A stretch of DNA of 61,720 nucleotides, the filler included, from Hausera hauseri (taxonomy: Eukaryota): the NCBI GenBank assembly GCA_046269625.1. It is 9 parts of 9 records of this genome, joined end to end, with 100 filler letters (N's around TTAATTAATTAA, not from the genome) between each part and the next. Parts side by side here need not be neighbours in the genome. Positions count along the whole stretch, not along the records: positions 55,416 to 61,720 come from JBJURY010114987.1; 8 more parts are not named here. One strand, 5' to 3'. Below, piece after piece: positions 22,745 through 61,720 of this stretch. The notes beneath the pieces were generated by a model. The model did no database searches. It had not been told where the DNA came from and worked only from the letters and a program-made list of their open reading frames with translations. Within the stretch, counting starts at the first letter, position 1; every line of letters starts with the position of its first letter. A program made the translations under genes and the position numbers.

Positions 22745-23110
22745 AAACCTGTTTCGGAGCATGCTGTTTGCAATAATAATTGAATTCGTTACGGAATATT
22801 CCCAACGCACCATTCTGGAAACCACACGCCAAGTGAAACGACCGACGACACGTCGGAATGCAACATCCAACGCCTGCTCGGCCTTGTTTACAAATACAAC
22901 ATTTCAATCTATCTATTCGGCGTATTTCTTTTGTAATGTCGCTGATAATAAATCCCAATAAAAATCCCGTTTTGTTCTTTTCCGGATCAAAAAACTGTAC
23001 AATTTTAGGACTGAAGAGCAGGCAATTTTCATGGAGAAATAAATCACCAGATGAATGAATTGGACCCAATTATTCATTTGAATTACATTTTACGCAGAAG
23101 GAACAATTTT
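22745..23110 (-). CDS. PHF7/G2E3/pineapple-eye-type extended PHD (zf-HC5HC2H) exon
   Basis: HENCLLFS...GF.ISDI.KEIRR..RLKCCICKQGRAGVGCCIPTCRRSFHLACG..NGA...F...F.YYCKQHAPKQ followed by a GT donor; the start of the region is disrupted. Confidence 0.8.
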
Positions 23111-25493: not shown

Positions 25494-25499
25494 ATCATC

Positions 25500-28400: not shown

Positions 28401-28900
28401 ATATTTCATTAATTTCATCAATATTTGAAATACTTATTGCTTCCTGAACGTCTTGGATTATAACAGGAGTATGTAACTCTGTTTCATCTCTTAAAACGAT
28501 AATGAAGTCTTCCGCTTTTTCTAAATCTTTTGTAATAGGGGATAGTGAACGAGTTCGTCACCTTCTCCTAAGTGAAAGGCTTCTACCCCTATTTTTCGTT
28601 ATTTTGACTATTAGTAGGCCAATGAATTCGCTGTCGACCTCGTCTGTAGTTTTGTCCTTCTCTTGGGACTCGACCTCGGTCTCTGCGTCCAGATCCACGC
28701 TTGAAGACTTAGTCGGCCTTTCCTCTTTCGCTGCTTGATTTAGGTTTCTTTTCCTGGCCATATTAGTGTTTCGGAGTGCTATAGCATTTTCGTATTCCGT
28801 TTTTGTTTCTCTTAACCCACGGTAAACTAGCATTAGCTGCAAATTTTCTTCGTACTCTTTCCTGGCCTTGATTATTTGTGGATTATTAGATTCACCCATA
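25500..28900 (-). pseudogene. ORF X: long Glu/Lys/Arg-rich helical region of unknown function with a ubiquitin-like segment and AT-hook; frameshifted
   Basis: Consecutive same-strand ORF fragments, each with a homologous segment in the same order at 56450-59920. Confidence 0.7.
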
Positions 28901-30300
28901 TTTTTATATGCCTTCGTAGATCTTGCATTTCGATAATCATGTTTATATCCCCTCGTTTTCCATATATACGTTCCAAATTATCCTTTATCGTGCTAGCCTT
29001 AGTAGTCTCTGAAAATGATACGCTTCGCGGATTAGGAAATGATCTAGCTATATGTCCTTCCTTGCCACATGAATAACAAATCAGATTCTCGTCTCGGCCG
29101 ATCCTTTGTCGTCCGTCTTCGTTCACTGGTGATTTGGGTCTGCCTGTTATTTTGTTTTGAATGGGTTGAGCTTTATTTCTATTTTCGAAACTTCGACAAT
29201 CTATATATCGGTTCTTGTTACCTCGGTCATTATTTTGGCTTCTGTCCGGATTATAACTTGTTTTGTATGTGTTCCTATTATCGCCAAAGTTTCTATTATC
29301 ATATCTCTTACTGCGATTAGTGGCATTCTGAGCTCTATTCTCATAGCCTCGGTCTTTATTATTATCATTAGATATTCTATTGTTTCGGTTTCTATCCCGA
29401 TTATCGCGATCATTATTTTGCTCATATCTATCACTCTGTCTAATGTATCTATCTAGTGCCATTTCTAAGTTCTGCGCTAACTGTAATGCAGTATCAAAAT
29501 TGTTTGGTCGAGCTAAAATTAGTTGTTTAACTAAGTCTCTGGACCATATACCATATTAACTGAGTTGTCATTTTGACATCTAAATCCGGTGGACTAGCCT
29601 TCTATGCCGCTTCGTTTTCCGCGCCTTTCTTTGCCTTTGCCACATTAGCTATCCTTAACATGCTCACGTAACTATTAGCAAGCTTCTTTAGTGCGAATGC
29701 AAATTGATTGACCGACTTACCCTTTTGTTGCGTTCTGTTTTGGAAGGCCATAAGCTTTTGTTGTAGGGTCACCGCTGGCAACAATTTACGATTCATGGAT
29801 CCTACTACGGCGGACCATGATTTCTTCTCGTCATTGGTGATTTCACTATAGGCGTATGCAGCCAGATTTTTTAAGTATAATGACAGTCGTTTAATCATAA
29901 CTTCGGGCGCAAGACTGGAACCTTCTGCGTGCAATTAATAAGTGCTTAAAAAATCATTTAACCCATCCGGGTCACAGTCATATGCCGTTATGTTCAAAAA
30001 ATCGAACGTAAAAATATCAAGTTTCTGTGCTATAGCGGGGTTGTCTGCTACCATCTTTATTTTATTCGGTTTATATGCTTTATGTCTTTTAGGAGGAGCT
30101 TTGAATTCTTTAACGAAGGTTAATTCAGTGTGGGATAAACAATGCTTGTCTATTGCCTTGCATTTAGTATAGAGTTTAATCCGCGTTTCCCTTTGATTAA
30201 GTTTCTCTATACCGTTTACTAATAAGTTTTGACACGAGTTGATAATCTCAATGTTTACTCTCGGATTAATCTTTACTTAATTCCCCTCTAACCACTTATG
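28900..30300 (-). pseudogene. Gag (capsid-like region, Asn/Arg-rich spacer, CCHC knuckle), frameshifted
   Basis: AYDCDPDGLNDF, LSLYLKNLAAYAYSEI, RTQQKGKSVNQFAFALKKLA (retrotransposon gag Q..ESV..F pattern), CYSCGKEGHIARS[F] at 29037-29078. Confidence 0.8.
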
Positions 30301-30416
30301 ATCCCAAGTTTAGACTCTTAACTCGTATTGTATAACAATTATTTGATGTATATTACGCTATTCGGCCGTATGTCTTTAATTGACTCTCGAAAGTACTGTC
30401 TAGCGAGGTACAAACT

Positions 30417-30434
30417 ATCCTGCTAGGGTCGCCA
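30417..30434 (-). promoter_or_regulatory. Primer-binding site TGGCGACCCTAGCAGGAT (tRNA-Arg-like)
   Basis: TGG start right after the LTR end; resembles the complement of tRNA-Arg 3' ends (...GGTCG-CCA). Confidence 0.75.
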
Positions 30435-30436
30435 AA

Positions 30437-30811
30437 TGTTATAGTTGGGGTGACCCTTATCGTCTCACACTGTAACAATAATTAAAGTCGATTTAAAAGG
30501 TTTTCTAAGCAGGTTAGAACTACTCGTGCTCGAATAGTTGGCTTGTACCCTAAGAGTTATCAGATACGTGAAGTGATGATGGTAGTGCTTGCAATGACAA
30601 AATGCTTGCCTCAATTTACCAATTCTTGTCCTAGCTATAGATTTCACGTTGATTTTACCCTTAGAGTAGTCAAATCGTCGTTAAGAGACGATGCGAAACT
30701 ATATAGGGATTTTAACAAAAGAAATTCAAATAACCTTTATTACTGCAAAATGACTACAAAAATTCAAGACAATCAATCAACGAATAAGTTGAGTTCAGAT
30801 CACTTGTAATA
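30437..30811 (-). repeat. Partial 5' LTR (R/U5) of copy A
   Basis: Ends in ...ACTATAACA two nt before the PBS; AATAAA at 30736-30741 (minus); alignable by eye with 55416-55752. Confidence 0.75.
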
Positions 30812-31476
30812 NNNNNNNNNNNNNNNNNNNNNNNNNNNNNNNNNNNNNNNNNNNNTTAATTAATTAANNNNNNNNNNNNNNNNNNNNNNNNNNNNNNNNN
30901 NNNNNNNNNNNGCTTTACATACCTTAAATAATAATACGAAACACAAATTAAAAAAAGGTAGCAGAAAGACGAATAAAATTGTCCCTTTTTAAAAAATAAT
31001 AAATTCAAACAATAATATTATTCAAATAATATAATTTACAATTTCGTTCAGATCATGTATTTCATTGTCTTCCTTTACAAAGCACTGTGAAATGTCTGAA
31101 TTTGCTTTATGATTTTACAGAACACTATTCAATACTTTCCATGTATACTCTACTATGCTTGATTTTTTTTCCAAAAAAAAAACATCTATTAAGCCTACAA
31201 AGAAAGAAGAGTGGTGTAGTCTCAGTGTCTGGATCACAAAATACACAGAAGCCTACTTGGTATCAATGTTTAATTTATTTTGCAAATGTCATAACAAGGG
31301 TAAAATTAATTAAAGTTTGAAATTCTCTTTTGTGAGAGTCGAAAAGAAGGTCTAATTTTTAAAATATATAATTTCTATCCAATTGATTGTTTTCTTCTCA
31401 GTGTTGATGGAAACTCAAAGTTATCGTTCTGAGTTGGTTATAATTTTTTGTGTAGGCAGTCACAGCCATTAATGAT

Positions 31477-31660
31477 CAATGGTGGAATGTAACAAAGTAC
31501 AAGTACTTTGTTGCTGTACTTAAATACATTTTTCATGTATCTGGACCTTACTTAAGTAGATTTTATCATGGGTACTTTTGACTTTTACTCCACTACATTT
31601 TACATTAAGTATCTGTACTTTCTACTGCACTACATTTCTGTAATGCGTTGAATTACAAAT
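31477..31660 (+). mobile_element. Terminus of a fish non-autonomous DNA transposon (hAT-like)
   Basis: caatggtggaatgtaacaaagtacaagtact...gtacttaa...acttttactccactacattt, resembling common teleost repeat ends; partner end not found. Confidence 0.45.
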
Positions 31661-34241
31661 TACATTCATGTCACATTGCATTACTTTTTATTACTTTTTT
31701 TTGTATTTTAGTATGAAAGTAATCAGTGGTGATTGGGAATTGCTGTAATTGGTCCATTGAGCCAATGCAATCACCTGCTGGAGCAGCAGCAGCAGCAGCA
31801 GCACTGCCAAAATGGACCATGGAGGATGTACCACTGATAGCCTTACTTAACTTATTCAAGTTAAGTGATTCCAAAAACAACTGGTTGAGCTTTGATAGAG
31901 GAGGTTGGTGGAGAATTTACAGCTTCTGTAGCTGTTGTCACAATGTCTGAGGATGCACAAAATCACCTGTCCAAGTGTGAACAGCTGTCACAAAGGGTTA
32001 ACAAAAACATGCATTATCTGCACCCTTGTTCAGTGAAATAGTACCATTTATGTATTAAAAATTTACATACAGAAGGCACACCTTATCATTTGAGTATGAT
32101 GGCAGGTTACCATTCATTGTTTCAAAATTGATCATATTTAAACACCCTTGCAGACCATAATAAGTCCTATTAAAACCAATGAGATATAGTCTAGAGGTAC
32201 TGAATTTTGTCTGAATATGTAGACAGAGAAATGGACCATCTGCTGAAATGTTGGCCTTTCATTCCTTCTCCAGAGACTGTCCATGCTGAGAAAGCTCTCC
32301 AGAGATCAATGAATACTTCAGCAACAATTAACAGACAGTGCGGTTAATTGTTAAAGCTGAATGTGTTAAGACAAAGTCAGAACATCACTGAAACTCAGTG
32401 TGATATTGACAACCATTGTTTTTTATTTGATCTGTAGTGTAGCAATAAAGATGAGTCATTTTTATCATGACCTCTCAACCCCACAGGTCATGATTCCTCC
32501 TGAAGTGAACTCTGTTCTTAAAAAGTGTTCTTACAGTCAAATTATAGGCCTGTATTTTCCATTAATCTGTCCTTGTTCTGCAGATTATGCTGACATGACT
32601 GGGTAATCTTTCTTTGAATCATCGTATTAAAAAAAGTCATATTTTTGTGACTTGATTTTCCTTTTTAAATGTATTTCATTTTAAGTGTGTATTCTGCAAC
32701 CTGAATATTTATCTGAGCTGTCATTTATTTTAATATCCAGTGTTGTTCAAAATGGTATGTCTGAATAAACAAGAATGCACTGTATTTCTTCTTTAAAACT
32801 TTATTTTCAATCATCTGACTCCAATCAGGTTCATACAATCAGCAGGCCTCATTGTAAGACCTTAGGCTGAACCAAAACAAAGACATCTGCTCTGCTCTGA
32901 GCAGAGATACTGCAAAACACAGAATTCTCTCTACTATAATAATGAATGCGGCTTATAATGTTCATCTCTTTATGGTTACAGCCCCAGAGGTGTTACGTTA
33001 ACGTTCCTCATTTTTTTTAGACTAAAGAAAGAACAACTAAGACACACACCAACTCTTTGTCTGCTGTAACCATACAGGCTGAAAGGATCAAAATGTATAA
33101 AATACAATACTGCATTTAATACTATAAATAGTTTACAAAATTTCCATCAGTACCCTGTTTGTTATCGAACAGTTTCTTTTCTTTCTCTCATGAAGCAGGT
33201 AAAATGCTGCATGTGTGTGTGTTAAAGCCATCCTGTTGAACATGTTAACAAAATATCTTCACTCCAAGAGATTACTTTTGCTATAAGCAGCAGTGACCCT
33301 AAAATATAATTCATTTGGTTATGTTTTTGACTACAACTCCCAAGGTGAATGCAAAAAAGACGAAGAATTCAGTTGTGAATCATATTCAGTAAACCATCAG
33401 TGAACAGCAAATATGTAGTGCAGAGCAGAACTAGTATGACCCTTTCTGGTTCTCCCCCATTTCTAACTTCGTAAATGTGAACTTAGTAAATGTGATCCTA
33501 TTTAAGAAATGCTGCTAGTACACATCTACAATGAAGAAATTTTCAAACAATAATTTTTTAGTAGCATAGCAGTTTTAATTTTGTCACAGAAAAATTATTT
33601 ACAATATTTAAGAATGTGCTACGAATTTTCAACCTGAAATAAAAACATACATGTACAATAGAACATGAGGAAATTTATTAATTTTTTTGGAGACAATTTT
33701 ATTTTAAACTTTATATTCCATCCAAATTATTCTCCCATAGAATGTCAGGGAAAAAAATGAGGAACAAGCCATTTAGAAAACTAAATTATTACTTAAATCG
33801 AACTGAAAGTATAACAATCTATGCGTTATCTTTTATATACATTGACAGATTGTCTTTGACAAGATGGCATTGCACTTGTACCACAGTTAACTACTTCTGA
33901 AAGTGGGCATGTTGCCTTTATTTTATATAACCTACCTCACTGGTTAAAACATAGGAACTCTGAATATATTTATATATAAACATTTAACAGGTTAACAGCC
34001 ACAGAATATTTCTAAATTTGCTAAAGTGAGGAAATGATGCCATGTAAAAATTAAGTAAGTCAATAGAGCCATAGCAAAGGGGAAAATAGTAAATGTATAT
34101 AATTTTTAAACACATTAACTTATACAAATACACAAATTGAAAGTTTTATGCTTTTCTCCAAAAACAAACAAATGTATGTAATGCACTGCAAAAAACATGT
34201 AAACAAAATATGAAACAAAAAGCAATTAATATGAAGTGCTT

Positions 34242-35193
34242 TCAGAACTGACAGTCCAGGCAGTGGCCAGGTGTACCGTCAATGTAGTAGCGGTTGTACT
34301 CCCCTAGTCTTCCATTTCCTGTGAAGCCCACACAGTCTTTGTACAATTGGTTGCAGGAAGAACATGTTATCACAGCAAAGGGTTTTCGGTTTCTGTCCTG
34401 AAAGATGCTGAGAATTTACTCCAGTTGATCTCCCCTGTAAATGATCATTTAAAAAAGTTACGTAAAATGTAATTTCATGTTTTAAATGAGAACAAGTCAA
34501 ACATCATTACCATCCAGCCATGCAAAGTGGGCCTTCTTCCTGAAAACTGGATCAGACACCAAAGATTTAAACCGCTTGCAGGTCAATGCCAAAGTGAGGT
34601 AAGCAGCATCTCCTTCTGTTAGGACCACCTCTTGGAGCACAGCCTCAAGTACATGCAAAGGCATCTGAAAAACAACCCAAATGTGAATTGTAAGCGTGTC
34701 AGAGAACGAACAACAATATGTATAAGAATTATTCTTACCTGTAAAATTGGTGGCATTTGTTGCACCTAAAAAGAGAAGACCACAAAAAAAAAACAGACAT
34801 AATACAGCATCAACACACATTTACATCTGAAACACACAAGGAAGTGACAATTCTTAATTATGGATAGTGTGACAAACCTCAAGGTCTGGCTTGGTTGTTC
34901 ATGCATAGGTGTGGTCCTCAGCACAATGACTCTGACAAAATATATATTTATACAATGTTTCTTAAAAACTAAAAGACAAAAACAGTCGGGTAATGTACAA
35001 AAACATAATTGATTCAATACTTGATTGTTGGATCATGATTGTCTGTCAAACACAAACCTAGTGCAAATGAGCACTGCAAATACACATAACAACAAAGAGA
35101 TTATTTAAAACTATATCTTACCTTACATTTTCTCCTTGCTTCAACCATTTCATCATCTCTCTTCCGCTTTCTCTCTCGTCGTAGTTCTTCTTT
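34242..35193 (-). pseudogene. Small spliced gene: basic coiled coil + F-box-like motif + two CxxC pairs; 1-bp frameshift in the last exon
   Basis: GT-AG exons 35122-35193 (partial), 34739-34765, 34511-34664, 34242-34434; ILQMPLHVLEAVLQEV...LALTCKRFKSLVSD; TCSSC...HCLDC. Confidence 0.6.
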
Positions 35194-35508
35194 NNNNNNN
35201 NNNNNNNNNNNNNNNNNNNNNNNNNNNNNNNNNNNNNTTAATTAATTAANNNNNNNNNNNNNNNNNNNNNNNNNNNNNNNNNNNNNNNNNNNNTATTAGT
35301 AATAATTAATTAAATGTGCAGCCAAAATGTACTTGATTTTGTTGAAATATATATTTATATCAACAATAGATTTATTCGGAATTAACGTTGTGTAAATAGA
35401 AAATAGGTGCAGGATAGCCCTCGTGGTAACTGAACAACCACACGAACTCACAGCGAGAAAAGTTTCACTAGCGCAACTTCCATAAATAAAATGTTAACAA
35501 AAACCAAA

Positions 35509-36110
35509 ACAGAACCAACAATCCTTAAAGATTGTAATGCAAGTTTAGAAGAACCAATGTTTAGAAGTAGTGAAACAGATGGGGTAAGATTGCCAAATGG
35601 AGGTATTACTGCAGCTCCAAATAAACTAACACAAACAAATCTCGCAAAAGGGATTACCGATGATAAGTTTCGTCAAAGGGCATATATAGGCATAAGGAAA
35701 TTAAAGCCTTTAGACAATTTCTCGCTTTTCCGCGACAGCGGATACACAAATTAAATCGAGCCATAGACTCCGTACTAAATGATACTCGATATCAAGCTAA
35801 ATGGGAATCATTTCTTGGTGTAAACAATTACCAGCGAGTAACCACAGAAATATTGTACAAAATTTGGGAAGATTTTTAATTTTTGACAAGCCGAATCTGG
35901 ATTTTTAGCAATCTATTTCCTATTACAAATAATTAAGGCCGTCATCCAAGCAGTAATATATGGCAATGAAATATGTACATTGACCGGATTTTCGTGTAAA
36001 ATATTGACCTCAATCATAACGTCTTTTGCAAAGTTTTTGAAAGCCTACGAAGAAAATAGATGGAAATCGGACGTAAAACGTCATGTCGGTTATCATAATC
36101 GTAAATGAAA
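35509..36110 (+). pseudogene. C-terminal part of the chuvirus-like glycoprotein, including membrane anchor region
   Basis: PTILKDC...PMFR.SETD.V.LPNGG; GIYRHKEIKAFRQFLAFP; FLAIYFLLQIIKAVIQAVIYG..ICTLTGFS; matches copy C. Confidence 0.8.
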
Positions 36111-36697
36111 AGAAACACCTATGTTCTTGTACAAGCGAAAATTTACAAAATCTAATACTCGAAGAAATAATTCAGATGATGACGAGCCTAAAGGAGGAGA
36201 AGTACTTTTAAGAACAGACAGACGTAAGTCGTAATCCGTCAGTAAAGCACCATTGCCTATGATATCCCCTACTTCTCCAGTCTATGAAGAATGTGACAAA
36301 CGGTCAATGAGCTCTTATCAGACAGAAATCTATAAAAAGACAATTAGTTTGGACGACCGCTACGAAGGAACGAGACGCTATGGAGTCATACTAAAAATGT
36401 GTTATCGACAGCCCATGGATGACCCCAGAATATTGTATTCCCCGAGAGAACCTTGGAATATAGAAACTAGATTGCCTGTCTGGGAAAATCCAAGGTTAAA
36501 AACCTTCCAAAATATAGAACCACACACTAACAATCGAGAACCATTAACTGAACATCAAAAACAATAAATTATATCCAAACGGAGAATTAAGACAATTATC
36601 AGAAAGCACAGTATCCTCCCCGGAAATTTGAATCAACGGACATAAAATATCGGCGACTAAACGCCCAAAAGTTGCATAAAACTGTTTTTGAACAGTA

Positions 36698-39600
36698 ATG
36701 GAAGGGAGACCCTTCTCCAAAATCATTATTGAAGACTGGGAAGTTTATGCGTTAATCGATACAGGTTCTGAGATGTCGTATATTAAAAACGATTCTATAC
36801 CTCAAACTCTAGGAGGACAGTTATACCAACCATCTACAAAGGATCCAGGAAGTACAGGAGCTTTTGGCCAAATGTTAAAACCCATGTTCAAATGGGACCC
36901 AGAAGTTCAAATAGTTAGACAGTTTTTCCGTCACGAATTTGAAGTTATGGAACAATTAACTGACGACGTAGTTCTAGGGTGTACTCTACTCAAGAGACTA
37001 CCAAATATAGCGATTGACTTGCAGACAGGAAAATTAATAGAAATCAGACCAAATAAAAGCGTAAGAAACTCTAAGGATAGAAAATTTGGAGAGGTGTGTA
37101 TACCAGTAGATGAAAATATTCCACCGAGAAAAGATAATAATTTACGCGCAAATTCAACAAGATGACGATCAACCAGTATATTTCGAATCAAAAGAGACAT
37201 TAAATCCGAATATAATACTTAGTAATATACTGACCAGAGTGCACTCCGGTCTTGTACCGATCAGAATAGCAAATAATGCACCGACTTCCATCAAGCTTTA
37301 TGTTTATACCACTCTAGGAAATATTTATAGAGGGTCGTCCATAACTATTAAAGAAAAGCCTTATAAGTATGCCGAATTCTCACTTCATGTCGAAGCTATG
37401 TTTTCCCCGGAATCTTACTGTCGATTCTATGAATTATTATGTCGCTATAAATGGATTATTGCTAAGGACGATGAGGATATTGGTAGGACGAAAGCATTAA
37501 AATTAACTATCCCGCTTAAAAAAGCCTAGTTCAAACGAAGAAATAAATCTTGAGGATCAGAAGATATCGAAATGGTATCCTCCACCTGATTCACTAAAAC
37601 CCGAGATAACAAAGGCGTTCAAACGGATGCTTAATCCGATATAATTAAGCCGAGCTATAGATCTTGGTATTCACCAATCTTCATGGTTAAAAAGAAAGGT
37701 ACTACGAAACATCGATTCTGCATTGACTACAGAGCGTTAAATAATCCTATGATGAAAGATTTCCCATTGCCATCAGTAAAAGAGGCTCTAGACAAACTCT
37801 CCAGAGAAAAATGGTTTACCACTCTGGATTTACAATCGGGATATTGACAGGTACAAATCGAGGACGAAGACCGATATAAAACAGCGTTCAAGATACATGA
37901 TGGTGTTTATGAATTTAATGTCATGCCATTCGGTATTACTACCGGACCAGCCATATTTAAAAGACTAATGAATAAAATGTTGGTGTAATAAGACCATGCT
38001 TTTGCATATTTAGACAATGTAATGATAGCGTCAGAGGAACACNNNNNNNNNNCAAAATATCAGATTGCGTGGAACCACAAAATCGGAAAAAGCTAAGACA
38101 CTGGCTACGTTTATGTGGATATTATGACACTTATGTACCGAACAACTCGAAAATAAATGTACCGTTATATCACCTTCTTAAAAAAGGAATTAAATGGAAA
38201 TGGACAGACGTCTAACTGAAAGCTTTCGACGATATGAAAAAGATATTAACAAGTGCACCAGTTTTTCAATACACAGACTTTAATTTACCTTTTATAATCA
38301 AGACAGATGCCAGTAAAAAAGATATTGGCCATAAATTAGTGCAGAAAGGAGAAGATGAAGAATTAAAATACCCAAATGCTTATGTAGGACGATCCTTGAA
38401 GAAGGCCCAGAAAAATTATTCTGCTACCAAATTAGAAACTCTAGCCGTAAAATTTGCGCTTCGACACTTCAACGTTTACGTGTACGGGCAGAAAATTGTA
38501 ATTGTCAGTGATCACAAAGCCGTTACGACTTTAAAAGGCCCACAAATAACCCAACATGCAGACTTAACAGATGGATCGAAGAAATCTCTAGATACAATAT
38601 TGAATTCTAGTATAAGCCAGGAAATAAACATGTAGATGCCGATGCACTATAAAGACTAAAGACCAAACAAGTGCAATCACTGTAATGAAGAAAAGTCAGC
38701 CTGAAGAAATAATAGATCGCCAACGTGCCTTAACGACGGATGAAGCGATTAAAATCTCAACCGAACAAAGAAAGAATAGAATTATCCAACAGATTATAGA
38801 ATTTGCTGAGAAGGACATAGTACCAAAAGGACGAAAATTATAAAAATATCTACGTAGACACGGACACAAATATTGCGTTTTGAACAACAAGGGTCTCGAA
38901 AACCTTCTATATTATGAGCGAAAAGAAAAAAAGCTGATAATTATTCCGAAAAACTTACGAATTAAGGTTTTTATGTCGGAACATGACTCATACTTAGCCG
39001 GACACATGTAGTGGAAAAAGATGTTACAGATAATACTGAATAAATACTTTCGGCTCAGTATCTATATTGATGTGAAAAATTGAGTAAATGCTTGTGAAGT
39101 ATATGCCACTAAACAAAAAAGACAAAGAATTATATAGCAAAATTAAAACCAGTCAATGGATATCGTAGGACCGCTTCCTACGACCCACAGAAACAATAAA
39201 TATAGATTAACTTGTATTGATCGACTAACTCATTTTGTCGAATTGATAACGTTAATTGATCAAAAGGCGGAAACTTTGGCAGAAGCTGTAGTAAGAATCA
39301 TTTGCCGATATGGACCTCCAGACCAAATATTAACAGATCGAGGAAGAAATTTTATAAGTGAACTATTTGAGAAGATTATCAAAATATTTGAAATCGAATG
39401 GGTAACTAATATCGCGTATCACCCTCAGTGTAATGGAATGGTTAAACGAATGAATGCAATTGTCATACGCATACTATCAACAGTAGTAGCTAAGGACCAA
39501 AAAGATTGGGACAAATTTTTAGAAGGAAATCAGTTTGCAATCAATACCACGCCACATCTATCAACAGGATTTACACCATATTTTATGATGTATGGACGCG

Positions 39601-39990
39601 AAGATATGTTGCGAACAGACTTAGGAATGACGCCATACACAGTCAATCCCGAAGATTTAGAACAAAACTTCGCAGAAGTATTACAAACGCGACTACAAAA
39701 ATGTTGAGAAATCACCAAGGAGTTATCCCAAGAATATCAAGAACAGTTCAAAAAGTAATACGATGAGAAAGTGAAACCGCATGATTTAGAACCAGGAAAT
39801 TGGGTTTATGTACATTATCCAGTTGCCAAGAAAGGCACGTTATTAAAACTGACTCGTACAGGCACAGGACCGTACGAAGTGACTAGAGTCACGCTAACTA
39901 CCAAGTACATTAACAAAAATGGGAAGGAAGAAGTCTTATCAATACAAAGAGTTGTTAAGACGGATATACGTCCCAATAAACGTTACAATT
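36698..39990 (+). pseudogene. pol: Ty3/Gypsy pol: aspartic protease, RT, RNase H, integrase with GPY/F module; many stops and frameshifts
   Basis: ALIDTGSEMSYI; SPIFMVKKK..RFCIDYRALN..PLP..LDLQSGY*Q..KTAF..YEFNVMPFG..AYLDN; TDAS..YSATKLETLAV..SDHK; HDSYLAGH..C; DIVGPLP..TDRGRNF..YHPQCNG; GPYEV. Confidence 0.95.
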
Positions 39991-41438
39991 TACATCAACG
40001 CGAGATAAAAACTTTCTCAATAATTGGTAGACCGTTATCATATCTTCAGATAGTTTTAGCACGATCACTAATTGCTTCTAATATTCCAAGAACACAAACT
40101 CAATGGTGGGACGATGAAACCATGTTAGAAGACTTATATGGAATTCGGAAGAGCGGATCAAAGCCGAAAAGTATTATAACGAAAAAGTAAACAACGGCCG
40201 AAGAGATCCAAAAACGAGAAGACACTATTTTGTTACAATCAATGAAGGTTCATTACTTTTCGCCCGACTCTCTGTGTGTTGGATTTAAAACTTAGAGACC
40301 ATATCACGATTTCGGAAGATTTCAAGTTGTACTATATGATGTGACAACAAAATAAGTAAAAAATTGCGATTTTTAACCCGGAGATTATACACAGTGCTGT
40401 GACAGATTTTGGACATATTTACATCCTTACTTATCGACTATACTTACTAGACTCATCAGAAGTCTATATCAAAGTAAACTCACAACTTCAATTGGTCATT
40501 CTCACTTGGCCTAGACGATTCGAAGTGAAACCCAAAGAAAGGCTACAATTCACTGACCCAAATATAAGGCTGTTAGATGAAAACATCAAAAGGATCTCAG
40601 TAAACCAGGGAAAACAATGCATCTAAGTAGATGGTTGAACAGGATTAACTCTTAGTCAAAAAATTAGTATTGTTTTCGAAGCAGTAAACGGAAAAGCTCC
40701 GAACATGAAATACTGTTCTCTTCATGCCGGTGTGTAACACCCATGTTGTAAGCTATCAGTAAACCAAGAATTCAAAATAAAATTTTATCTATATGAAGTA
40801 CGACGGGATAAACCGAGCAAACATTTGCAAACCTATTACCCATAGAATAGAATATGGCGGATTCCAGTATAAACGACAACCGAAAAACCGACAACTCGAG
40901 TTAGTGCTAATACCAGACCCGTTATATCAAGCAGTGTGCCTAAAAGAGAATTTGGAAGTGTACATACTAAATATTCGGCACATCGATTTAAAATTGTGTT
41001 CTTTGTAGAAAAACTAAATTACGACATACATATAAGCTGTCGAACAACGTATAATAATCAAATTGGAAAACTACTTAAGAACACTCAGAAGACGGAATGC
41101 AATTTGTTAAAACCACAATCCGATTACATAGTACAAGTATATGCAAAGAATAAACAAAATCAATTACATTGCGTACCTTAAACGAAATTCGTGAAGAATC
41201 GCATGTATACGAAAACATAGACGACGAAGTCACAACTCCATTCACCATACAAGCCCAAATGAGATTAACCGCTTTACCAATCATATCGATTTTCGTACTA
41301 CCAACGTTTGTTCTCATTATATTAATTGCGATTTTTCGGTTAGTTGCCAAAAATTGTCAGTCTAAGCGTCCTAAAACTATAGAATTGGAAATTGGGGAAT
41401 TGGCACCCCCTACTGACCCGTATGGTAAAATAACCTGA
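39990..41438 (+). pseudogene. Putative second type-I membrane protein with an FN3-like domain downstream of integrase; fragmented
   Basis: Hydrophobic signal-like FSIIGRPLSYLQIVLARSLIA after IN; CNLLKPQSDYIVQVYAKN (41098-41151); TM LTALPIISIFVLPTFVLIILIAIF; short tail ending at 41438. Confidence 0.55.
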
Positions 41439-41519
41439 CAACTACAGAGCGGGTTATTCTATCATCTAACTAAGAATTTGTTTCATTTTAAGACCACCCT
41501 TTGTTGTAAGATTAACCCT

Positions 41520-41976
41520 TACTGTTTATTTCTTAGACTGATGAGTAAAGAGAGAGTTATTAAAACGGGTACTGGACGACCTATGATCGACGAATCGCGA
41601 TCTATCCAAGAACGAGAACGATGTAGTATCGATAAATCACCAAAACGCCGACTTAGTATCGACGAGTTTCTGCAGAATTACGCTACCGTCTTTCTTCCAA
41701 ATTCAAAATCCATATATCTAGAAATTCATAACGAATGGCATGAGAAAACCTTCATGAAGTATGATCAGACCAGCATAATTCCTAATAATTTAAAGGGTAT
41801 AACGGAGGAAAATAGGATTGTTTACCTTTACGCCATGAGAAAAGAAAAGGATGCCCGAGCATACTCACTCAAACAGATGATCAAGTACGAACATCATCAG
41901 AATATTTATATCCACCTGGTAGATGGTGATATATACTATCGGTTCAAAAATCAAGAAGGCAATAGGGACTTAGTAC
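41520..41976 (+). CDS. Hypothetical ORF, open to the contig end, probably part of the retroelement
   Basis: Over 150 uninterrupted codons from MSKERVIK; same strand and composition as the element; no motif recognised. Confidence 0.45.
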
Positions 41977-42829: not shown

Positions 42830-44138
42830 CAGCGTTGTTCAAATTAACGTTTCTACCCTGTGCATTAATGTGTTCATGTACATTTGCACTCTCTTTCTCC
42901 CTCTCTCTCGCATACAATGTTTATTATTTTATGCGTTCTGATGCTTGCCTGTATCCATCATGTAGTTGCACACCTGCATGTTGTATGAGTCATGCACACC
43001 TGCACTGCAAGTCAATAATTAATTTTAATCATTTGTCAGTATTAAAAGCGAGCATCAACTGCGTTTAAAAATTGAAACTCTTCTACGACATACCAGCAAG
43101 AGTAATCGTGAGATAGCCCGCGATCTTTGTGTATCTCTCACAGGTTAACAACGTGAAAAAAAAGCAACTCAGTGCAACAGGAAGTGCTTTACCAAGAAGA
43201 ATCCAAAGGTGTGGTCACAAACCTTTTCTTGGTGCCAGTGCTCAGTGCCTTATTGTTTGCAGGCCAAGCTCCATCCCAAAGTAATATCAAGAGAAATACA
43301 TCAATCCGCATAAGCTGTCTTTGAACATGTCAGTGGTAGCACCATCAGACGTATTCTGCGCCAGAACGGAATGAAAGCATACAGACCCATCAAGTGTCCT
43401 GTCCTCACAAAAACACATTAACGTTGGCGTTACAAATGGTCACTCCAACATTTGCAGTCTTCATCTACTCAGTGGAAGAAAGTTATTTTCTCCGATGAAT
43501 CTTGCTTTGAGGTAAGAGAACCATGGTCTAAGTATGTCCGTCGACAGAAGGCAAGCTGCTTCAACGTGATCACTTCAACGAACAAAGTGGTTGCCTTTGA
43601 AGGTAATGGTATGGGGTTGCATGTCCTTTTATAAGACCTCTGAGTTGCACATTGTCGACGGTACAGTAGATAGTGATAAGTACATCTCTATTTTGAAGGA
43701 GTACCTTTTACCTAAGGTGTAGGAATGGTTTGGTAAATCGAGCTGGATTTAACAGCAAGATAATGCTCGCAGTCATACCAACAAGTACTATAAAGAAGCT
43801 CCAGCAAAACAACATTGAAGTGCTTTCTTGGCCAAGTTGTAGCCCTGGTTTTAATTGCATCGGAAACCTCTGGGGCATTATGAAGCAGGAGGTCTACCAG
43901 ACCATAAATTAGAGTACGCGACATCTCACTGAGAAAATTAAGATTGCGTGGAACAGAGACAAAGTGCAAAGTATGTGTGCTAAATTTGTTTTACCCATGC
44001 CATCACCTGTTAACTGTATCAAGATTGTTAAAGATGGTCACACTTCATATTGATTTATGGTAAATAAAACTTACTTTTGGAAATTTGTGTAATTTTTCTT
44101 CATTTTTGTGGATGGAAACGTTAATTTGAACAACCCTG
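42830..44138 (+). mobile_element. Full-length but decayed Tc1-like transposon
   Basis: TIRs CAGCGTTGTTCAAATTAACGTTTC / GAAACGTTAATTTGAACAACCCTG, TA on both sides; transposase remnants WKKVIFSDESCF, VMVWGC, QQDNARSH, WPSCSPGFNCIGNLW. Confidence 0.92.
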
Positions 44139-44435
44139 TACATTTCTCACTCGTTCAGTCTCAACAATAATGTTTATGAATAGTGAACTTTTACAAATTG
44201 TATTTATGGTAATATTCTTTTTTATATTTCTTCAGATGTATAAGTTGTTATAAAAAAATGTCGTTCTTCTGCTATTAGGTAGCATTGCGTATTAGATCCT
44301 TCGAGACATTTTTTGAAGTGTTAATTTGTTTTAACGAAATAAAGTGCAATTACAACTTGTCAGTTTGATGTATGAATTTTCTTGGAATTTGAATAGTATT
44401 TGATTGTTTTGTAGTAAAAATAACGGTAGAGTCAA

Positions 44436-45452
44436 ATGGAAATTAATGCAAAAAATGCTAATTTAATCATTGAAAAGTTGAGAAGGAACAATTATAAGAG
44501 CACGGATATACACAGATTACTGACAATGGCCTGGGGTGATGAGGTGACAAGCGTTAGACAAGTTCAAATAATATCGAAAGAATATGAAGACGGTAATTGA
44601 GTTGATTTTAAAAGGAAGCCAGGCAGCGGAAAAAAAGACGAAAATCACAAAAAAGTAGTACGTTTAGTTGAGCAACAAATGCAGCAAAACCATAAGTTGA
44701 CTACAAAAGAATTGGCGGAGATTGCCGGTGTATCTAACTACCTTGTATACAAAATATTAACGAAGGGTTTGATGTGGAAATGTTTGTCGGACAAGTGGGT
44801 GCCGCATACTTTAACGGACGGACATAAATCTGAACGCGTGTAGTGTTGTGAGAACTTGTTGCAGACTTTCACCAGGCACAGAAATAGTAAACGATACTTA
44901 ATTGTAACCTACGAGAAGTGGTTCTACGGCAAACCTTTAGGTAACTTTGTTACCAGAAAATCTTGGGTTCCACCTGCTGGAGACGGATGCGAAGTTGCTA
45001 AGAGGATGACTGTTGAAATGAAATGTTTTGTTCTGGTTGCTGTAAGTTTTGGAAGTCTCTATCAGTTTAAGGTTTTAAATCGGTGTGAAACAGTAAACTT
45101 TGAGTTATGAGCTTAGAGTGCACAGAAGATCCGTGTCATTGGATACGTGCATCCTTATGCACGACAATGCTACGCCTCATACATCTCTCTTTGCCACACA
45201 ATTCCTTCAAGACAAAGGCTGCACCTTGATTCGACAACCACCATACTCTCCAGATGTCAGCATTTGTGACCGCATGGTCTTCCGAAAGGTAGAAATGAAA
45301 AGATCCGGAATAACATTTCATGAAGCGAACGATGTCGTAGATTTTCTTCATGAGGAATTTCAGACTTTAACTGAACAGGTGATGAATCATGAATTTGACA
45401 TGCTTACCTTCACTTACGAAATGTTATAGACAATAATGGTAATTACGTTTAA
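44436..45452 (+). mobile_element. Decayed mariner-type (DD34D-like) transposase
   Basis: KWVPHTLT, IVTYEKWFY, LMHDNATPHTS, QPPYSPDVSICD; stops and frameshifts; TIRs not identified. Confidence 0.88.
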
Positions 45453-50300: not shown

Positions 50301-50393
50301 GTTACATAGATGTTATTGCTTTTGAAAATGCCATGGACAACGAAGAGAACTATTGATGGTTTAGTGCTCGAAGCTGAAATAGAAACATTATAC

Positions 50394-51092
50394 CTTCAAA
50401 CTGGGCAAGATGACACTCAGACACACTTCTCCGCCTGCCTTCTTTAAATGCTGTTTTCCTTAACGTCTTTTGGTAAAGTGACCGTGACCTTGTTAATTTA
50501 CCGCCATCTCCACAAATGATGTTTGTTTCAACTTGTGAGCTGACACTACTGCGTGCTGAGAAGGAAGGCGCCCGGAGCATAGAGTCTTTTAAGTCAAGAA
50601 GCTTATACGTGGAAATAGAAGATACTCCCGAGTTCGTTGCTAGAGGATTCTCAGGCGACGACAAATCGACACAGTTGGATGGAGATCGTTGGTTTGATGA
50701 ATCAGATGTCTTATATTTTGCAAGAGAAGGAACTTGGTATTCTGAGACTGACGAATAATGATGTCCAGAAATAGTGGCGGGAAATTCTTGTAAATTGAAA
50801 GTTGGTGAATCAGCATTCATTACCATCGAACAATTGGACAACTGGGAGACAGGGGTTTGTGAGTCATTTTCAAACATCTGGAAACTAGAGGTTGGTGAAT
50901 CAGCAAGTTTGAGCGTGGAAGAAGGCGATTTGGGGGTTTTTGATGTTGGTGAATCATGAAGCATGGGCATTGCAATAGGGAAAGTATGAACACTTGATGC
51001 TGGTGAATCAAGAAGTGTGGGAGTTGTAACAGAGAATATACCGGGCTTATAACTTGCTAAACTGGCATGTTTGAGTGCGGCACAAGGCGATA
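50394..51092 (-). CDS. Probable exon of a host gene; Ser/Pro/Thr-rich disordered region with repeated DSP(T/A) motifs
   Basis: Open frame from the contig end to a GT donor after ...RRRSVSECHLAQFE; no domain recognised. Confidence 0.5.
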
Positions 51093-55415: not shown

Positions 55416-55752
55416 ACTTGCCATCTTATTCTTATCGATTGATATTCTTGCAATTGTAACGTACGGTATTATTTAGTTGTTAATAAACTTGTATTTAAAA
55501 TTCTTGATAGCTTTTTCGTCGCTCCTTACGAGGGACTGGTACCACATTAAGTATTAAAATTTCGTATAAAATCTAGTTAAGTCGAGATCCATTTAAACTC
55601 TGCAAAGGACACGCACGCAGTTCGTACATCATAAATTAGTGCAAACATTCTAACGAGAATGTTAGAACGTACCTGCCAAATAAATATCTCTAATTGAAAT
55701 TAATTCATTGTTATAGTTGGGTGTTGGATAGGGCCACCTTCAACTACTAACA
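55416..55752 (+). repeat. Partial 5' LTR (R/U5) of copy C
   Basis: AATAAA at 55482-55487; ends ...CTAACA two nt before the PBS. Confidence 0.75.
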
Positions 55753-55754
55753 AT

Positions 55755-55772
55755 TGGCGACCCTAAAAGGAC
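55755..55772 (+). promoter_or_regulatory. Primer-binding site TGGCGACCCTAAAAGGAC (tRNA-Arg-like)
   Basis: Same position and near-identical sequence to the copy A PBS. Confidence 0.75.
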
Positions 55773-55899
55773 AGTTTGTACTTGCTAGACTTGACTTTTA
55801 GCGAAAAGTAACGACATATCAGCGATCAGCGCTACCACATCGAATAATTTANNNNNNNNNNGTGATCTTGAAATTCGGGATTGATAAGAAACCTTAGTA

Positions 55900-58800
55900 T
55901 TATAACGACATACTATTGAATTCAGAACGAATATTGACAGGCATAAGTCGGACATTAGTTTAAATTTAGTCCCAGACGATAAAGAAAATATTAACATACG
56001 CGAAATACGCAACAAAGTATATACATAAGGTAAGACGTTGAGCAGACGCACCTTATCTGAAACGAATTTAGCTAATATTAAAACTAATAATTTAGACGCT
56101 GTCGAACAACTTATTGAATTTATAATCCCCGATAAACGAATTAAAACTCGTAAGCTAATTAAGCAAAGTCTAATAAATGTAGAAAACATGATTGAGAATC
56201 AAGCAGTTCCGCAGAAGTTGGATATCTTTAAATTTGACTCTGAATCTGCCGGCGTACGACGGAGACCCGGACGGATTTAATGAATTCTTAAGAACTTATA
56301 AGTTGCATGCAGAAAGTGCTGGACTTGCATGTAACGTAATGATTAAACGTTTATCATTATATTTGAAAAATTTGGCCGCTGATGCTCATAGTGAACTCAC
56401 TGATGATGAGAAGAAATCCTGGTCCTCTCTCGTAGGGTCATGTCCAAATCCACAAAGCGTTTCGTTTGTTGAGCCTAGTAAAACTAATGTAGTTAGGAAT
56501 AAAAATTTAGAAGCCGTTTATGGCATCCGTAAAGACAAAGGTATGATCATAGACATACAAGATTTACGACATCTCCTAAAAGCTCAATCTGATACCAGTG
56601 ATCTAAAAGTCTTAATGGCCAAGAATGGGTATGAGCACAAGTTACGATTGTTAGAAGTATATCATGGCCTACGCAAACCAGAAACGGAATACGAACTTTC
56701 TATTGCCCCGCCAAAGCTTACCGATATGGCATGTAAAAAGAATGTTCGAGCGGTTCATAAAGAAGCAGGGGAAACGGAAAATCCTGAGACTCCGGATGAA
56801 GTAGACTTAGACGCAGAAGCGGAATATATGATAGAAAAAGTAGACAAAACCATAGAAGTTGACGAAGAAAAAGAATTTATGGAACCACTAATACTCAAAA
56901 TTACGAAGAATAGAGGCCGTAGTCCATCATTGAAGTGGAAACGTAAAGATCGTTCACAATCTTCAATGAATAAAGAAAAGTCGCGCAGGGCAAAAGAAAC
57001 CGAAAATGCTCTAGAAAGCGACGTAGAGTTCAATTTGAATACCCCGGAAACCGGGCTAGTTACCCTTGTCGGAATAGAAAAATTAATAAATGAAATAAAT
57101 GATATGTCGATTGCTTATTAGTGAAGAAGAGGCAGACCAAAGTGAGGAATTCGATCGTAAAAAGTGAAAAATCGGACGTTCATGGAAAAACACTGATGAA
57201 TTAAAATGAGGATTATTTGTCACGATCCAGACGAACTGCAGCAGAATCTAGAAAAACTTAAAGAAATGAGCGAACAAGTAGACATTTCCAGTAAGAAGCA
57301 GCAGTTCGTACAGAGATTGTACAAGAAAATGAAGTTAAGGAAAGTTAATTGAAGCTATGGATCTAGAACAACCTGCGGAGGTATCCCCGAACACAATAGC
57401 GAAAGAAAACATGAATTAGAAATGTGGATGAAAAGTGGAGTAAAATTACCGGAAGCATAAGACAAAACCACTGAAGACATTGAAGTAAAAATAAATAAAG
57501 CTCAAACATTATTGACTACGTTAAAAGCCAACCGAAAACTAAAGAGAGCAACACGTAACCTAGAACGTGTCATGAATGAAATTAGATTCGAAGTAGTTGA
57601 ACGACTCAAAGAAAAACCGGCCCAGGAAAGAAATGAAACTGACTTAGACATGCTGGGTATATACTCAATAGATATTCCGCTCTTAGTGGAAATGATAAAA
57701 ATCGCTTCCACTGCATCAAAACAATATACTAGCCTGGAAAATCGTATTAAGATTGAAACCGAAAAACTGTCGCAAATATACAGCTTGAGGAATATGATTA
57801 TGAATGTGAATAATGAGGAAACACAAAACGTAATTAAGGCTTGTATCCTTGAACTCGAAGAGTACAAAGATGAGTTTAATTATGCCAAATGATTATTGGT
57901 TTTATTAAATGTCCGGATGATGAATGGGAAGACGCCTACAAAATACTAGATGAAGCAATACTGGCAAAACCCATGATTGCTAATCAGTTAATGAATGATC
58001 CCGACTAATAATGAGACTGAGTGAACTAGTAGAGTGCCGTATAAAAGAATTTCTCGAAAGTGAGCCTACATTACAGAAGCAATTATAAGAAAATGCACGA
58101 AACCTAGATACAGTGAGAGCGGAAATAGACATTAGAACTCAATTTGATGCATTACGCCAATTACAATTTATGAAAACCAAACAAGAAATGACGATACTGG
58201 ACAACATATATAAAATGATCGAAGAAACGAACTTTACAGAGAAGTAGAACATGATCTGTAACTTCCATCCGAGATTAAAGAATGTTCGCTTGGAAGGAAT
58301 CCAGCATTTGACATCTAAACATATCAATGAGATCTCAATTCGGGATGTCGAAACTTTAAATGTTTGTGCGGAACATCGATCAGATATACAAGAGGCAATA
58401 GAATTACTACACAAACCCCAAGAGTGGATGATCGTAACAGATCAAAGGTGTCATACGAACTGACCAAAATAAGAAATGACCAGCACCTCAGCTTTGATGA
58501 CGTGAAGTTTGTAAAGAGGTTGCTCGATGTTATAGATCCAGACTCGAAAATTATTCATGAGATGTATGAATTAGCATTACTAATGGTGGAAATGGCAGAA
58601 ATTAGTGATGAAAAAATAAGACAATTGATGCCTCAGATACGGCGAGTCGAAGAAACTTTTATTAAAACCAAACAGAGAGCGATAAGATTAGACGACCTGG
58701 TTAAAGAAAGACATTGTTTTCGAACAACACAAATGAATAAAATGCAACGGAAATTTAGCGAATTAAGAGGATCAACACGGGATGCGGAAGCGGCTCAGCT

Positions 58801-59920
58801 ACTGGACAGGCTAACACTTGATTACAGACCTCCAGATAGTGAAAACGAACCAGAATGGGATGCATACTTAGACGCAATGATTGCTGAGAATCCGAAAACC
58901 ACGGGATCGGAGATTTAGTGTGGAAATGCTTTTAGATTCAGCGCAAACTGAAAAGGACTTAATTAAGTTAATTAATGTAAATCTTACCGAATCTCAATTA
59001 AAACAGCTAGTTTCTACCCTAACTTCTAATAAAGGAATATGCTAAAGTATTAAGGACCACATCCGAATACACAGTTAAAGTAAAAATATCGTCTGACCGG
59101 ATGGACGAGAAAGAGCAAGAGTATACTAAGCGCTCTGTCGTAAGAGACGTGGTACAGTGGCTAATGAATAATGGTTGCGCAAGTGAAATGGACTATAAAC
59201 TTTACTTTAGCCGTTGAATATTAGACGAACTGGAACAATTAATTGACGTCAGAATTATCCCAGGTGAAACGAATCGAATAGTATTGACGGTCGCTACGGA
59301 GGAGACAAAAAAGAGGCCACAAGGACGGCTAAAGCAGATCATTGTGCAGGACGAATCGTGGGAGTTCGAGATATAGCAATGTACTTTAAATACTTGCAAA
59401 CGGACGAAGGCAAAGAACAATTTGATAAGAATTTAGTGCCATCTAGCGAGACCGCACCAGTTATAGCAAATCAGAAGCGTCTTGTTGGTAGACCGCGACA
59501 GGCTCGAGAAGAGACTGATTTTAATGGGATTTAATTAGGGATTTGAGGCAAATGTCCATACCAACACTTAGTCCAGAAAACGAAGAGCTGAATGAACTTA
59601 TGAAAAACTTGATACGCATAGTAAACCACTCTAGTCTCTGTGGCGATATATTAGATGAAAAAGAGAAATCTATAAACCATGCAGCCAAGACAATGAGTAA
59701 TTTACGATGTAAATCATCTAGGAGCACATTAAGCAACGAATCGGTGATCGAAAAGATAACGGTAGAAAACACTATAAAAGAGTTAAGAAAGGTGTGACTA
59801 TATTGAGCCATTAAAACAAACCCTGCCAGAGAAGATGAACTTAACAAGGCCACTAGTCTAGCGCGAAGGGCTGCCAGAAAGCTACCCCGAGACGTAAGCT
59901 GGTCTTTAGTAATAGTAGAT
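55900..59920 (+). pseudogene. Gag (internally deleted) continuing in frame into ORF X
   Basis: PAYDGDPDGFNEFL..LSLYLKNLAADA..W; ORF 56192-57121 runs from Gag into ORF X without a stop; later fragments match copy A. Confidence 0.75.
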
Positions 59921-59928
59921 TCGAAGAT

Positions 59929-61720
59929 ATGTTACGAAATTTAACTGGGAATAATCGGGGAAATGAATCAAACTGGCTAATTAATTTTCTAACTGCGATG
60001 ATGTTAATAAGACAAATAGGAGCGGTTACAATATATGACTGTGCCAAATTCAGACTTGGCCAAAGATATTCATTAATGGATTTGGAAATGTGCGAAAATG
60101 TGAGACCACATAAATTAGAAACAAAAGAAGAAAGATATGTACTGTATCAGCAACGACAGTTAGTCTCATTGGATGAAATAGAATGTATGTTGCGACGATC
60201 TCGCAGTATTTTTCATTGTGGATTAATACACGTACATTCATCTATAATCAAGCCGACGACCCCACTAATTCCAATGAACTTAGAACTCCAGCATTGTAAG
60301 CAGGCTAGAGAGACAGACAGGCTGAAGTTGAACGTCATGGAATTAGAAATGCAGCAAGGGAAAATAATCAGAACATACAAAGTAGCAGCAGGAAGATTAG
60401 ACATGCATACGAGTCACTATAACGGTGCAGAATACGATACTGGAAAGGGATTGCAGTCAAACATAGTGGTTGTGGATTTCTACGAAACCGAGATGCGCAC
60501 ACAAAAAGTGATGTTTCATAGTGTTACTAAGCTCTATACGGAAAACCAAAAGTGATACATCCAAGACAGCACCTGTTCTTTTAGGATTTCAGTAGTAATT
60601 TGAAACCTCCAGACAAGACCGATTGCAATTTCATTAAAATTAAAGAACTGAAGTTTAACGAAACGACAGGAAAACGCTACGTAAGTAATACGGATAAAAA
60701 CTCAAAAATGCGAGAGGATGTAGCGGAACGGCATACACCTACCATATTAATTTCCGATACTCACGGATTAAAGTTTGTGAAGAAAGACGTACTCACAAGG
60801 TGTGATGTATTAATGTACGCCACCAGTTATGAAGCATTCTTTGTAGCTGAAACCGAGGTAAATACCAGAACGTTCAGGCTTGAGACTCAAGATATTCGAA
60901 TTGAAGATTATTTGAAGAATAGAGACGATTATTTCTACTACAAGGGATAGGCCGGAATTACTGAGTTATACCATAAGATGAAAACGGATGACTGTAAACT
61001 AGACTTAGAAGCCATAAGAACCAAACTGGCTTTAATATATGCCAATCCCGAGCTAGCGTCACCAATAATTCCGATAAAAGAAGGCGTTTTTGGACGAGTG
61101 ACGGGAGAAGTTCTGCTGACCTACGAATGCGAGAAGAAGGATGTACCTATTAATGTGGAAGAGAAAAGGTGCATTCAAGAACTTCCAGTGATATATCAGG
61201 ACGTACCGAGATTGGTAACGCCGATTACGACAGTATTACTGGCAAACTCTATATAACCGACGATTCTGAACGATTGTAAGACCAGTTTGGGAGAACCAAT
61301 GTTTAGACATAGCGAAACCGATTGGGTAAGTTTACCGAATGGTGGGATAATTACGCCGCCCACCAAGTTAACAGGAACAAATTTAATAAGCGGAATAATT
61401 GATGATAAGTTTCAAGATGCTGAAGCAAAAGTTACTTATCGGCTAAAAGAAGTAGAGGCATTTAGACAATTTCTCGCTTTCCCACGCCACCGTACGCATG
61501 AATCAAACAGCGCGATGCATACAATACTAGAGGATTCACGTTACCAAGCGAAATGGGAAACGTTACTTGGTGTTAACTACTATCAAAAGGTGACTACTGA
61601 AATATTGTATAAAATTTTGGGAAGGTTTCTGATATTCGGCCGAGCCTCATCAGTATTCCTAGCAATTTATTTCGAAATTCAAATGGTTAAAGCGATAATT
61701 CAAGCGGTAATAAATGGATA
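59929..61720 (+). pseudogene. Chuvirus-like envelope glycoprotein, nearly complete, with a few stops
   Basis: IYDC..SLMDLEMC; LYQQ..IEC.LRRSRSIFHCG..HSSII; GEVLLTYEC..DV..RCIQELPVIY..LVTPIT.VL; DC..PMF; FRQFLAFP; hydrophobic C-terminus FLIFGRASSVFLAIYF. Confidence 0.8.

Follow-up and report, generated by a model that had tools for sequence, protein, structure and literature searches.

The window analysed here, a stretch of 61,720 nucleotides, is made up of nine contigs joined by eight identical 100-nt spacers of the form N44-TTAATTAATTAA-N44 (between 20215 and 55415), and since these spacers part separate contigs, adjacency in the window does not mean neighbourhood in the genome. One element family occupies three of the contigs, as copy A (24657-30811, minus strand), copy B (35294-41976, plus strand) and copy C (55416-61720, plus strand), and all three copies are broken, dead relics (Table 1). 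CpG observed/expected across the contigs splits into 0.23-0.42 and 0.8-1.4, by which the window mixes at least two organisms.

Table 1. Parts of the three element copies, with positions along the window and the basis of each assignment
Copy	Feature	Positions	Strand	Basis
A	env N-terminal part, broken, ending at contig end	24658-25469	-	PF24664, E 1.4e-6
A	spacer region X	25500-28979	-	colinear with copy C
A	gag, capsid-like part and CCHC zinc knuckle	28980-30060	-	zf-CCHC, E 1.3e-4 (above cut-off)
A	PBS-like motif behind LTR end	30423-30434	-	second of only two TGGCGACC sites in window
B	env C-terminal quarter with membrane anchor and tail, broken	35476-36108	+	PF24664, E 3.8e-9
B	pol, PR-RT-RNase H-IN(GPY), broken	36692-39900	+	Pfam matches in Gypsy order
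B	post-integrase module, broken: FN3-like piece (40873-41178), then transmembrane segment (~41280-41336)	40873-41438	+	profile, hydropathy
C	likely 3' part of 5' LTR, ending ..ACA	55416-55752	+	two bases before PBS, as in copy A; junction common to A and C
C	tRNA PBS-like TGGCGACC motif	55755-55766	+	found only here and at 30434 (-) in window
C	gag remnant	56179-56500	+	73% amino-acid identity to copy A gag
C	spacer region X between gag and env, ~3.4 kb, broken	56504-59900	+	similarity to copy A
C	env, gB-type Monjiviricetes/chuvirus-like class III fusogen (predicted)	59929-61720	+	PF24664, AlphaFold2 model, Foldseek

The remaining contigs carry a mixed content. On the CpG-poor contig 1-20214, which we take to be fish by recognition and from no database result, exons of an EML-family (EML5/6-like) gene (4000-16200, minus strand) lie with transposon pieces, and a Tc5/pogo-type DNA-binding piece is found at 830-1543 (minus strand); a CpG-poor contig also holds an F-box piece (34497-34820, minus strand). 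A CpG-rich contig bears a decayed, apparently intron-poor MOV10L1-like helicase piece (20950-22096, minus strand) and a PHD-like zinc finger (zf-HC5HC2H) piece (22728-23069, minus strand), which may be captured or retrocopied host-gene scraps; the helicase piece gave only generic matches of 49-74%, with no close relative, and does not name the host. Two decayed Tc1/mariner-type transposase pieces were located at 43400-45430 (plus strand; weak DDE_3 match at 45097-45429), and a broken BEL/Pao element with DUF1759 and Peptidase_A17 occupies its own contig (46457-49687, plus strand), followed 3' by an ORF rich in Ser and Pro that contains a 54-nt repeat and has no Pfam family (50350-51090, minus strand).

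The analysis of the copy C env bears out the series of glycoprotein motifs, in the order that the first-pass annotation of this DNA had claimed. A signal-like stretch (~59974-60027) is followed by YDC-x9-SL-x-D-x3-C starting at 60034, by C-x5-R-x-IFHCG and then HS (with a looser spacing than originally written), by GEV..EC (61104-61130) and C.QELPV.Y (61170-61196), and by FR..L.FP (61461-61484), while the GIY element of the series is present only in copy B (35679). A decayed C-terminal hydrophobic stretch begins at ~61600, and the membrane anchor is cut by the end of the window. The gene is interrupted by stops at 60553-60555, 60948-60950 and 61254-61256, the first of them closely followed by a frame change. 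Both halves nevertheless match the Pfam family PF24664 (Monjiviricetes_fusion) above its curated cut-off, with E 6.6e-12 for the N half (59929-60555) and E 1e-28 for the C half (60585-61718, its two stops replaced by X), which shows that the motif series is more than chance.

These matches were extended by a predicted structure. An AlphaFold2 monomer model of the C half, built from a 50-row alignment, reached a mean pLDDT of 83.9, and its top viral match in Foldseek was, as the first-pass annotation had expected, a chuvirus glycoprotein (Tacheng tick virus 4 G, E 1.3e-12, TM 0.48), followed by G proteins of other chu-like viruses and of xinmo-, nyami- and bornaviruses. A PDB sequence search returned 0 matches; all 11 PDB matches of the model at E<=0.001 were herpesvirus gB (best E 2.8e-4). 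The TM-scores are modest for a half-protein model, at 0.48 to chuvirus G and about 0.3 to gB. No F-type family or fold, as in baculovirus F or the F-type errantivirus Env, emerged from these comparisons; the matches were to PF24664 in both halves and to the class III fold. By family and predicted fold, the copy C env is thus a chuvirus-like, gB-type class III glycoprotein, with a predicted function in membrane fusion. It shares PF24664, the class III gB-like fold, conserved cysteines and the GEV motif with the G proteins of Chuviridae/Jingchuvirales (Tacheng tick virus 4, Wenling fish chu-like virus), but is only 18-25% identical to them and falls outside their clade; among the ORFs scanned, neither an N nor an L gene of viral type was seen.

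Upstream of env, copies A and C are organized alike. Their TGGCGACC motif resembles PBS rows assigned to tRNA-Arg/Asn in supplement 1 of PMC13524379; as the window contains no second LTR, the 5' end of copy C is a presumptive LTR, and the contig ends explain why neither an LTR pair nor a TSD is seen. The copy C gag lacks ~750 nt present in copy A gag, including the zinc knuckle part, with tblastx blocks jumping from A 29797 to A 29042 at C 56440; the copy A gag matches Retrotrans_gag below cut-off (E 0.015). Region X is 29-59% identical at the amino-acid level between C and A in three blocks and ends in copy C with an AT-hook-like GRP motif. No Pfam family reaches its cut-off in the region X pieces, whose broken state lowers sensitivity, and one copy A piece gave no family and low recognition in an atlas search. 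Against the copy C env, amino-acid identity is 56-76% for copy A (four blocks) and 67-71% for copy B.

Copy B supplies the enzymes. Its pol yields Pfam matches to RVP (4.8e-5), RT_RNaseH_2 (1.7e-28) and rve (8e-13), along with RVT_1 on a short piece (7e-4, below cut-off), and carries RFCIDYRALN (37713), YEFNVMPFG (37908) and GPY (39867). The protease DTG motif lies 650 nt 3' of the env tail, with no assembly gap from env to RT (first N run at 38043). Judged by its PR-RT-RNase H-IN order, RT_RNaseH_2, rve and GPY, the carrier is of Ty3/Gypsy type, and Pao-type families (DUF1759, Peptidase_A17) were found neither in the pieces of A, B and C nor in the 23 relatives scanned. The earlier assignment to Gypsy rather than BEL/Pao is upheld by these matches and by the Gypsy-type enzymes of the relatives. 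Its statement that Gypsy RT and IN are linked to the env is correct as to the motifs, but these stand in copy B, on another contig; neither RT nor IN is visible beside the copy C env, the pol of copy C being outside the window. The Gypsy link of env is therefore direct for copy B and inferred for copy C. Gag-X-env is found in copies A and C and env-pol only in copy B, with no single contig holding gag, env and pol, so that the order gag-X-env-pol is a composite, likely that of the family, pieced from separate contigs. The position of env upstream of pol, absent from the first-pass annotation, is the more distinctive point.

Relatives of the env were recovered by an exhaustive phmmer search with its C half (248 matches at E<=0.001, 12 at 1e-30, 150 of them listed), although word-index protein searches with the same half had returned no near or longer match. 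Among 20 of the 150 listed matches scanned against Pfam, env stood 5' of protease and/or RT in one ORF in 10, the pol-env order occurred in one (a thrips protein with integrase before env), and a Pao family in none. Two cluster members, of 4,844 and 3,003 aa, display the full env-PR-RT-RH-IN order. Because all copies in the window are broken, the evidence for a single gag-env-pol reading frame comes from relatives, P0002 and P0028 among them. The copy B RT is 45-61% identical to the RT of env-pol relatives, none of which is matched by the Pao pieces of the window. A TP..T[NDS]Y signature occurs in copy C and in 12 of the 15 clade members but in none of the 84 other matches of >=550 aa, and is shared, by eye and with motifs picked afterwards, by six published Schmidtea ENV rows (PMC13524379, supplement 2). 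No similarity could be detected between region X and the relatives' spacers. Some relatives do bear cargo of the Burro type: before env, P0007 has a Bcl-2-like stretch (E 1e-3, below cut-off), and ankyrin occurs in P0152.

Further observations concern the relatives themselves. Several aspartic-protease-like domains per polyprotein, plus ankyrin and C2H2 pieces, were seen in P0152, P0010 and P0004, and DTG-type motifs number seven in P0152 and five in P0010. The best relative, P0002 (HBK71150.1), is deposited as a Flavobacteriaceae MAG protein; as it is a eukaryote-type env-pol retroelement polyprotein, it is probably a contaminant of that bin.

Overall, we consider with a probability of about 0.88 that the env stretch is the broken env of a Ty3/Gypsy element of the planarian Burro/GAG-ENV-POL type, encoding a chuvirus-like gB-type glycoprotein, and that the element likely formed membrane-fusing particles when active. 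Base composition bears on where this element resided. CpG observed/expected is 1.05 in A, 1.13 in B and 1.17 in C, against 0.42 and 0.23 in the fish-like contigs 1-20214 and 30912-35193, and the dinucleotide distances are 44-57 among A, B and C but 150-194 from them to the fish-like contigs. This points to a second, non-vertebrate organism mixed with the fish contigs as the source of A, B and C. Given the planarian affinity of the env, a flatworm is the best guess; the host is likely a flatworm, possibly a parasitic one, whose DNA was sequenced along with that of a fish. It is unlikely that the element resides in the fish genome itself, a reading that would bring vertebrates into the host range of gB-type Gypsy elements. 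One public run (X1) does contain both the fish-like contig and copy C, the depth of exact pieces on copy C (6.5-7.3) is near half that of the fish-like contig (9-11.6), as for a one-haplotype insertion, and the survey in PMC13524379 searched invertebrates only; however, contig depth carries little weight as a measure, CpG should be depleted in elements that decay within a methylated vertebrate genome, and both the CpG values and the dinucleotide pattern set A, B and C apart from the fish-like contigs.

The first-pass annotation had read the env as a new and independent capture from a chuvirus, and this is the claim that did not survive. That idea once looked open, with PMC10084718 reporting no clear Gypsy capture in arthropods, and it draws on the chuvirus-type G proteins at the top of the Foldseek list and on the PF24664 matches. 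Against it, Gypsy-polyprotein relatives score E 1e-43 to 1e-54, whereas the Wenling fish chu-like virus G, from one of four named clusters among 30 proteins looked up, reaches only E 2e-11 at 25% identity. Trees were built from the C half of env, using matches with 420-800 aligned residues and dropping near-copies. In a 111-row FastTree, the copy C env, which is <=32% identical to any relative and sits on a long branch, falls within an env-pol group, and in a 25-row IQ-TREE it lies inside this group with support of 100/99, the 25 rows having been hand-picked from the larger tree so that the group was named after the first tree had been seen. Forcing it together with the four-row clade of the Wenling G lowers the log-likelihood by 80 units (p-AU 1.1e-8), a rejection that applies to a chuvirus clade with one named member, in trees that have few named rows and do not include Anakin sequences. 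Together with the relatives that carry env in frame 5' of PR-RT-RH-IN, this argues for an old retroelement env lineage rather than a fresh chuvirus capture. The unrooted tree does not give the direction of transfer between donor and recipient and, with few named rows, speaks neither for nor against an ancient donor among other virus families. That this Gypsy lineage recently and independently captured a chuvirus glycoprotein is accordingly very improbable, and the pairing had in any case been published. Least probable of all is an env that stands alone as an endogenous viral gene, or comes from a BEL/Pao element, with the Gypsy pol as a mere neighbour: the window does include a BEL/Pao piece and copy C lacks a pol within it, but that piece is on another contig, copy B env runs gaplessly into Gypsy PR-RT, PBS and gag precede env in A and C, and the 10 relatives with fused enzymes have them of Gypsy type, against 0 of 20 with Pao.

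The comparison of copies points to past purifying selection on the env of this Gypsy element. In ungapped tblastx blocks, pN and pS of env were 0.19 and 0.88 between A and C (254 codons) and 0.16 and 0.75 between B and C (116 codons); for gag they were 0.13 and 0.72 (66 codons), while region X was freer (pN 0.36). Picking blocks by tblastx biases the comparison towards conserved sequence. Silent sites have reached saturation, so that dN/dS, the measure proposed for comparing the copies, is not computable for A-C; pN is nonetheless far below pS in env in both comparisons. With amino-acid changes far fewer than silent ones, env appears to have been under constraint while the subfamilies diverged, and decay came later. 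In run X1, the one public run containing copy C, 6,325 contigs align to C at >=85% across all identity bands, which indicates many diverged copies of the family; depth is not a copy count here, and X1 may be the source sample. The public run search listed no RNA run as containing copy C.

Among described elements, the closest in design are Burro/GYPSM1, the giant gypsy-like elements of planarians, which combine a CCHC Gag, a long cargo region, env and then PR, RT, RH and IN in many copies; in Burro, env has matches to mononegavirus fusion glycoproteins and lies between gag and pol in one frame with them (Arkhipova and Yushenova 2019, PMC6431247). The same source reports decayed copies from Dugesia japonica, a likeness to the decayed A, B and C. 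There are also differences. The internal region here would be ~13 kb, if A/C and B share one design, against up to 25 kb in Burro, whose polyprotein of near 4,900 aa carries BIR, MATH, BCL2 and ankyrin cargo, none of the four being found in region X; section 7 of PMC6431247 does not mention a post-integrase FN3-like membrane module for Burro; and the host of A, B and C is probably not a planarian. With a region X that resembles neither the relatives' spacers nor Burro cargo, the family is Burro-like only, short of strict Burro membership.

A comparable likeness links the family to the GAG-ENV-POL "ancient errantiviruses" (HSV/gB-type ENV, Platyhelminthes C1a, Smed_errantivirus_1-6) of Chary and Hayashi (2026, PMC13524379), with their Ty3/Gypsy pol, Chuviridae-G-like gB-type ENV and env 5' of pol, and the copy C env shares with Smed_errantivirus_1-6 a domain I-II signature recognized by eye; those elements are intact, whereas A, B and C are broken. 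That survey describes 114 Gypsy elements with chuvirus-like G in arthropods, as well as GAG-ENV-POL elements in nematodes, bryozoans and flatworms. Its supplement 6 lists 55 flatworm genomes, of which 50 are parasitic and show 0-1 ENV-POL env matches (1 in 3 genomes) and no annotated element, and five are free-living with 5-253 such matches. The Anakin elements of mosquitoes (Dezordi 2020, PMC7642597) carry the same glycoprotein superfamily on an LTR element but have a BEL/Pao pol and insect hosts, in contrast to A, B and C, which are without Pao families. Non-canonical nematode ERVs (Sacco et al. 2022, PMID 35550022) can be likened by description only, as metaviruses with an RNA-virus-type glycoprotein and flipped env/pol in nematode hosts. 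Cer1 was dropped as a comparison, its extra ORF being 3' of pol and not an envelope (PMC10309623). Gypsy elements with a chuvirus-like gB-type Env, the env-before-pol order included, have thus been in print since 2019 and were widely surveyed in 2026, and the copies described here are a new example, not a new capture.

The region behind the integrase of copy B was found to hold a putative second membrane module. Its FN3-like piece scores E 0.024 with Pfam fn3 (15 bits against a cut-off of 25), and a single-sequence model of it, all-beta with a pLDDT of 49 and a best Z of 4.8 to unrelated folds, was not of usable quality; with a weak score and a failed fold test, the FN3 identity is only a hint. 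A C..L.P.T.Y-type motif occurs in four of the five relatives with a long post-integrase region (P0018 being the exception) and, in the window, only at 40873-41178 of copy B. When a local motif profile of the four relatives' pieces was run against 1416 six-frame ORFs, copy B ranked best (E 0.0012; next 1.2), a result that is partly circular because the motif was chosen after the sequences, copy B included, had been seen. One background match of the motif arose in 240,165 residues, probably in P0154, a near-copy of P0155; P0154 has no fn3 match. A profile of the whole post-integrase regions of the five relatives gave nothing significant in copy B (best E 0.61). A hydrophobic segment is present in the long post-integrase region of each of the five relatives; in copy B, hydropathy revealed no signal-like segment ahead of the FN3-like piece. 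After the transmembrane segment of copy B, an open frame of 179 aa (41439-41975, plus strand), which matches neither a Pfam family nor the relatives, is either cargo or unrelated. Full-text search found no second FN3-like membrane module in print, and "fibronectin" is absent from the main text of PMC6431247 and PMC13524379; figures, further supplements, Repbase, Sacco 2022 and Grohme 2018 may describe one.

The hydropathy of the relatives, with alternating hydrophobic segments on either side of Env and after integrase, plus a further one near the end in three of them, fits a polyprotein threaded through the ER membrane, from which we infer the following topology. By analogy with alphavirus or flavivirus polyproteins, one chain would cross the membrane repeatedly: Gag and spacer X would remain cytosolic, an internal signal sequence would direct the ectodomain of Env to the lumen, and the anchor of Env would bring the chain back to the cytosol. 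Pol, which would be made on the Env tail, could be drawn with Env into budding particles and later released by the protease. A signal-like segment after integrase would then export the second, FN3-like type I membrane protein, possibly for attachment. The fullest form of this proposal, in which each polyprotein provides two surface proteins, a gB-type fusogen before Pol and an FN3-like type I membrane protein after integrase as the attachment or trigger partner otherwise missing from gB-type retroelement Envs, and in which many copies reside in a parasitic flatworm of fish, is tentative and on balance doubtful.

These findings may extend the host range of such elements to parasitic flatworms, in which the survey of PMC13524379 annotated none. 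Moreover, the candidate second membrane protein behind the integrase bears on a question raised in that study, namely how a gB-type Env would work without the herpesvirus partners gD, gH and gL.
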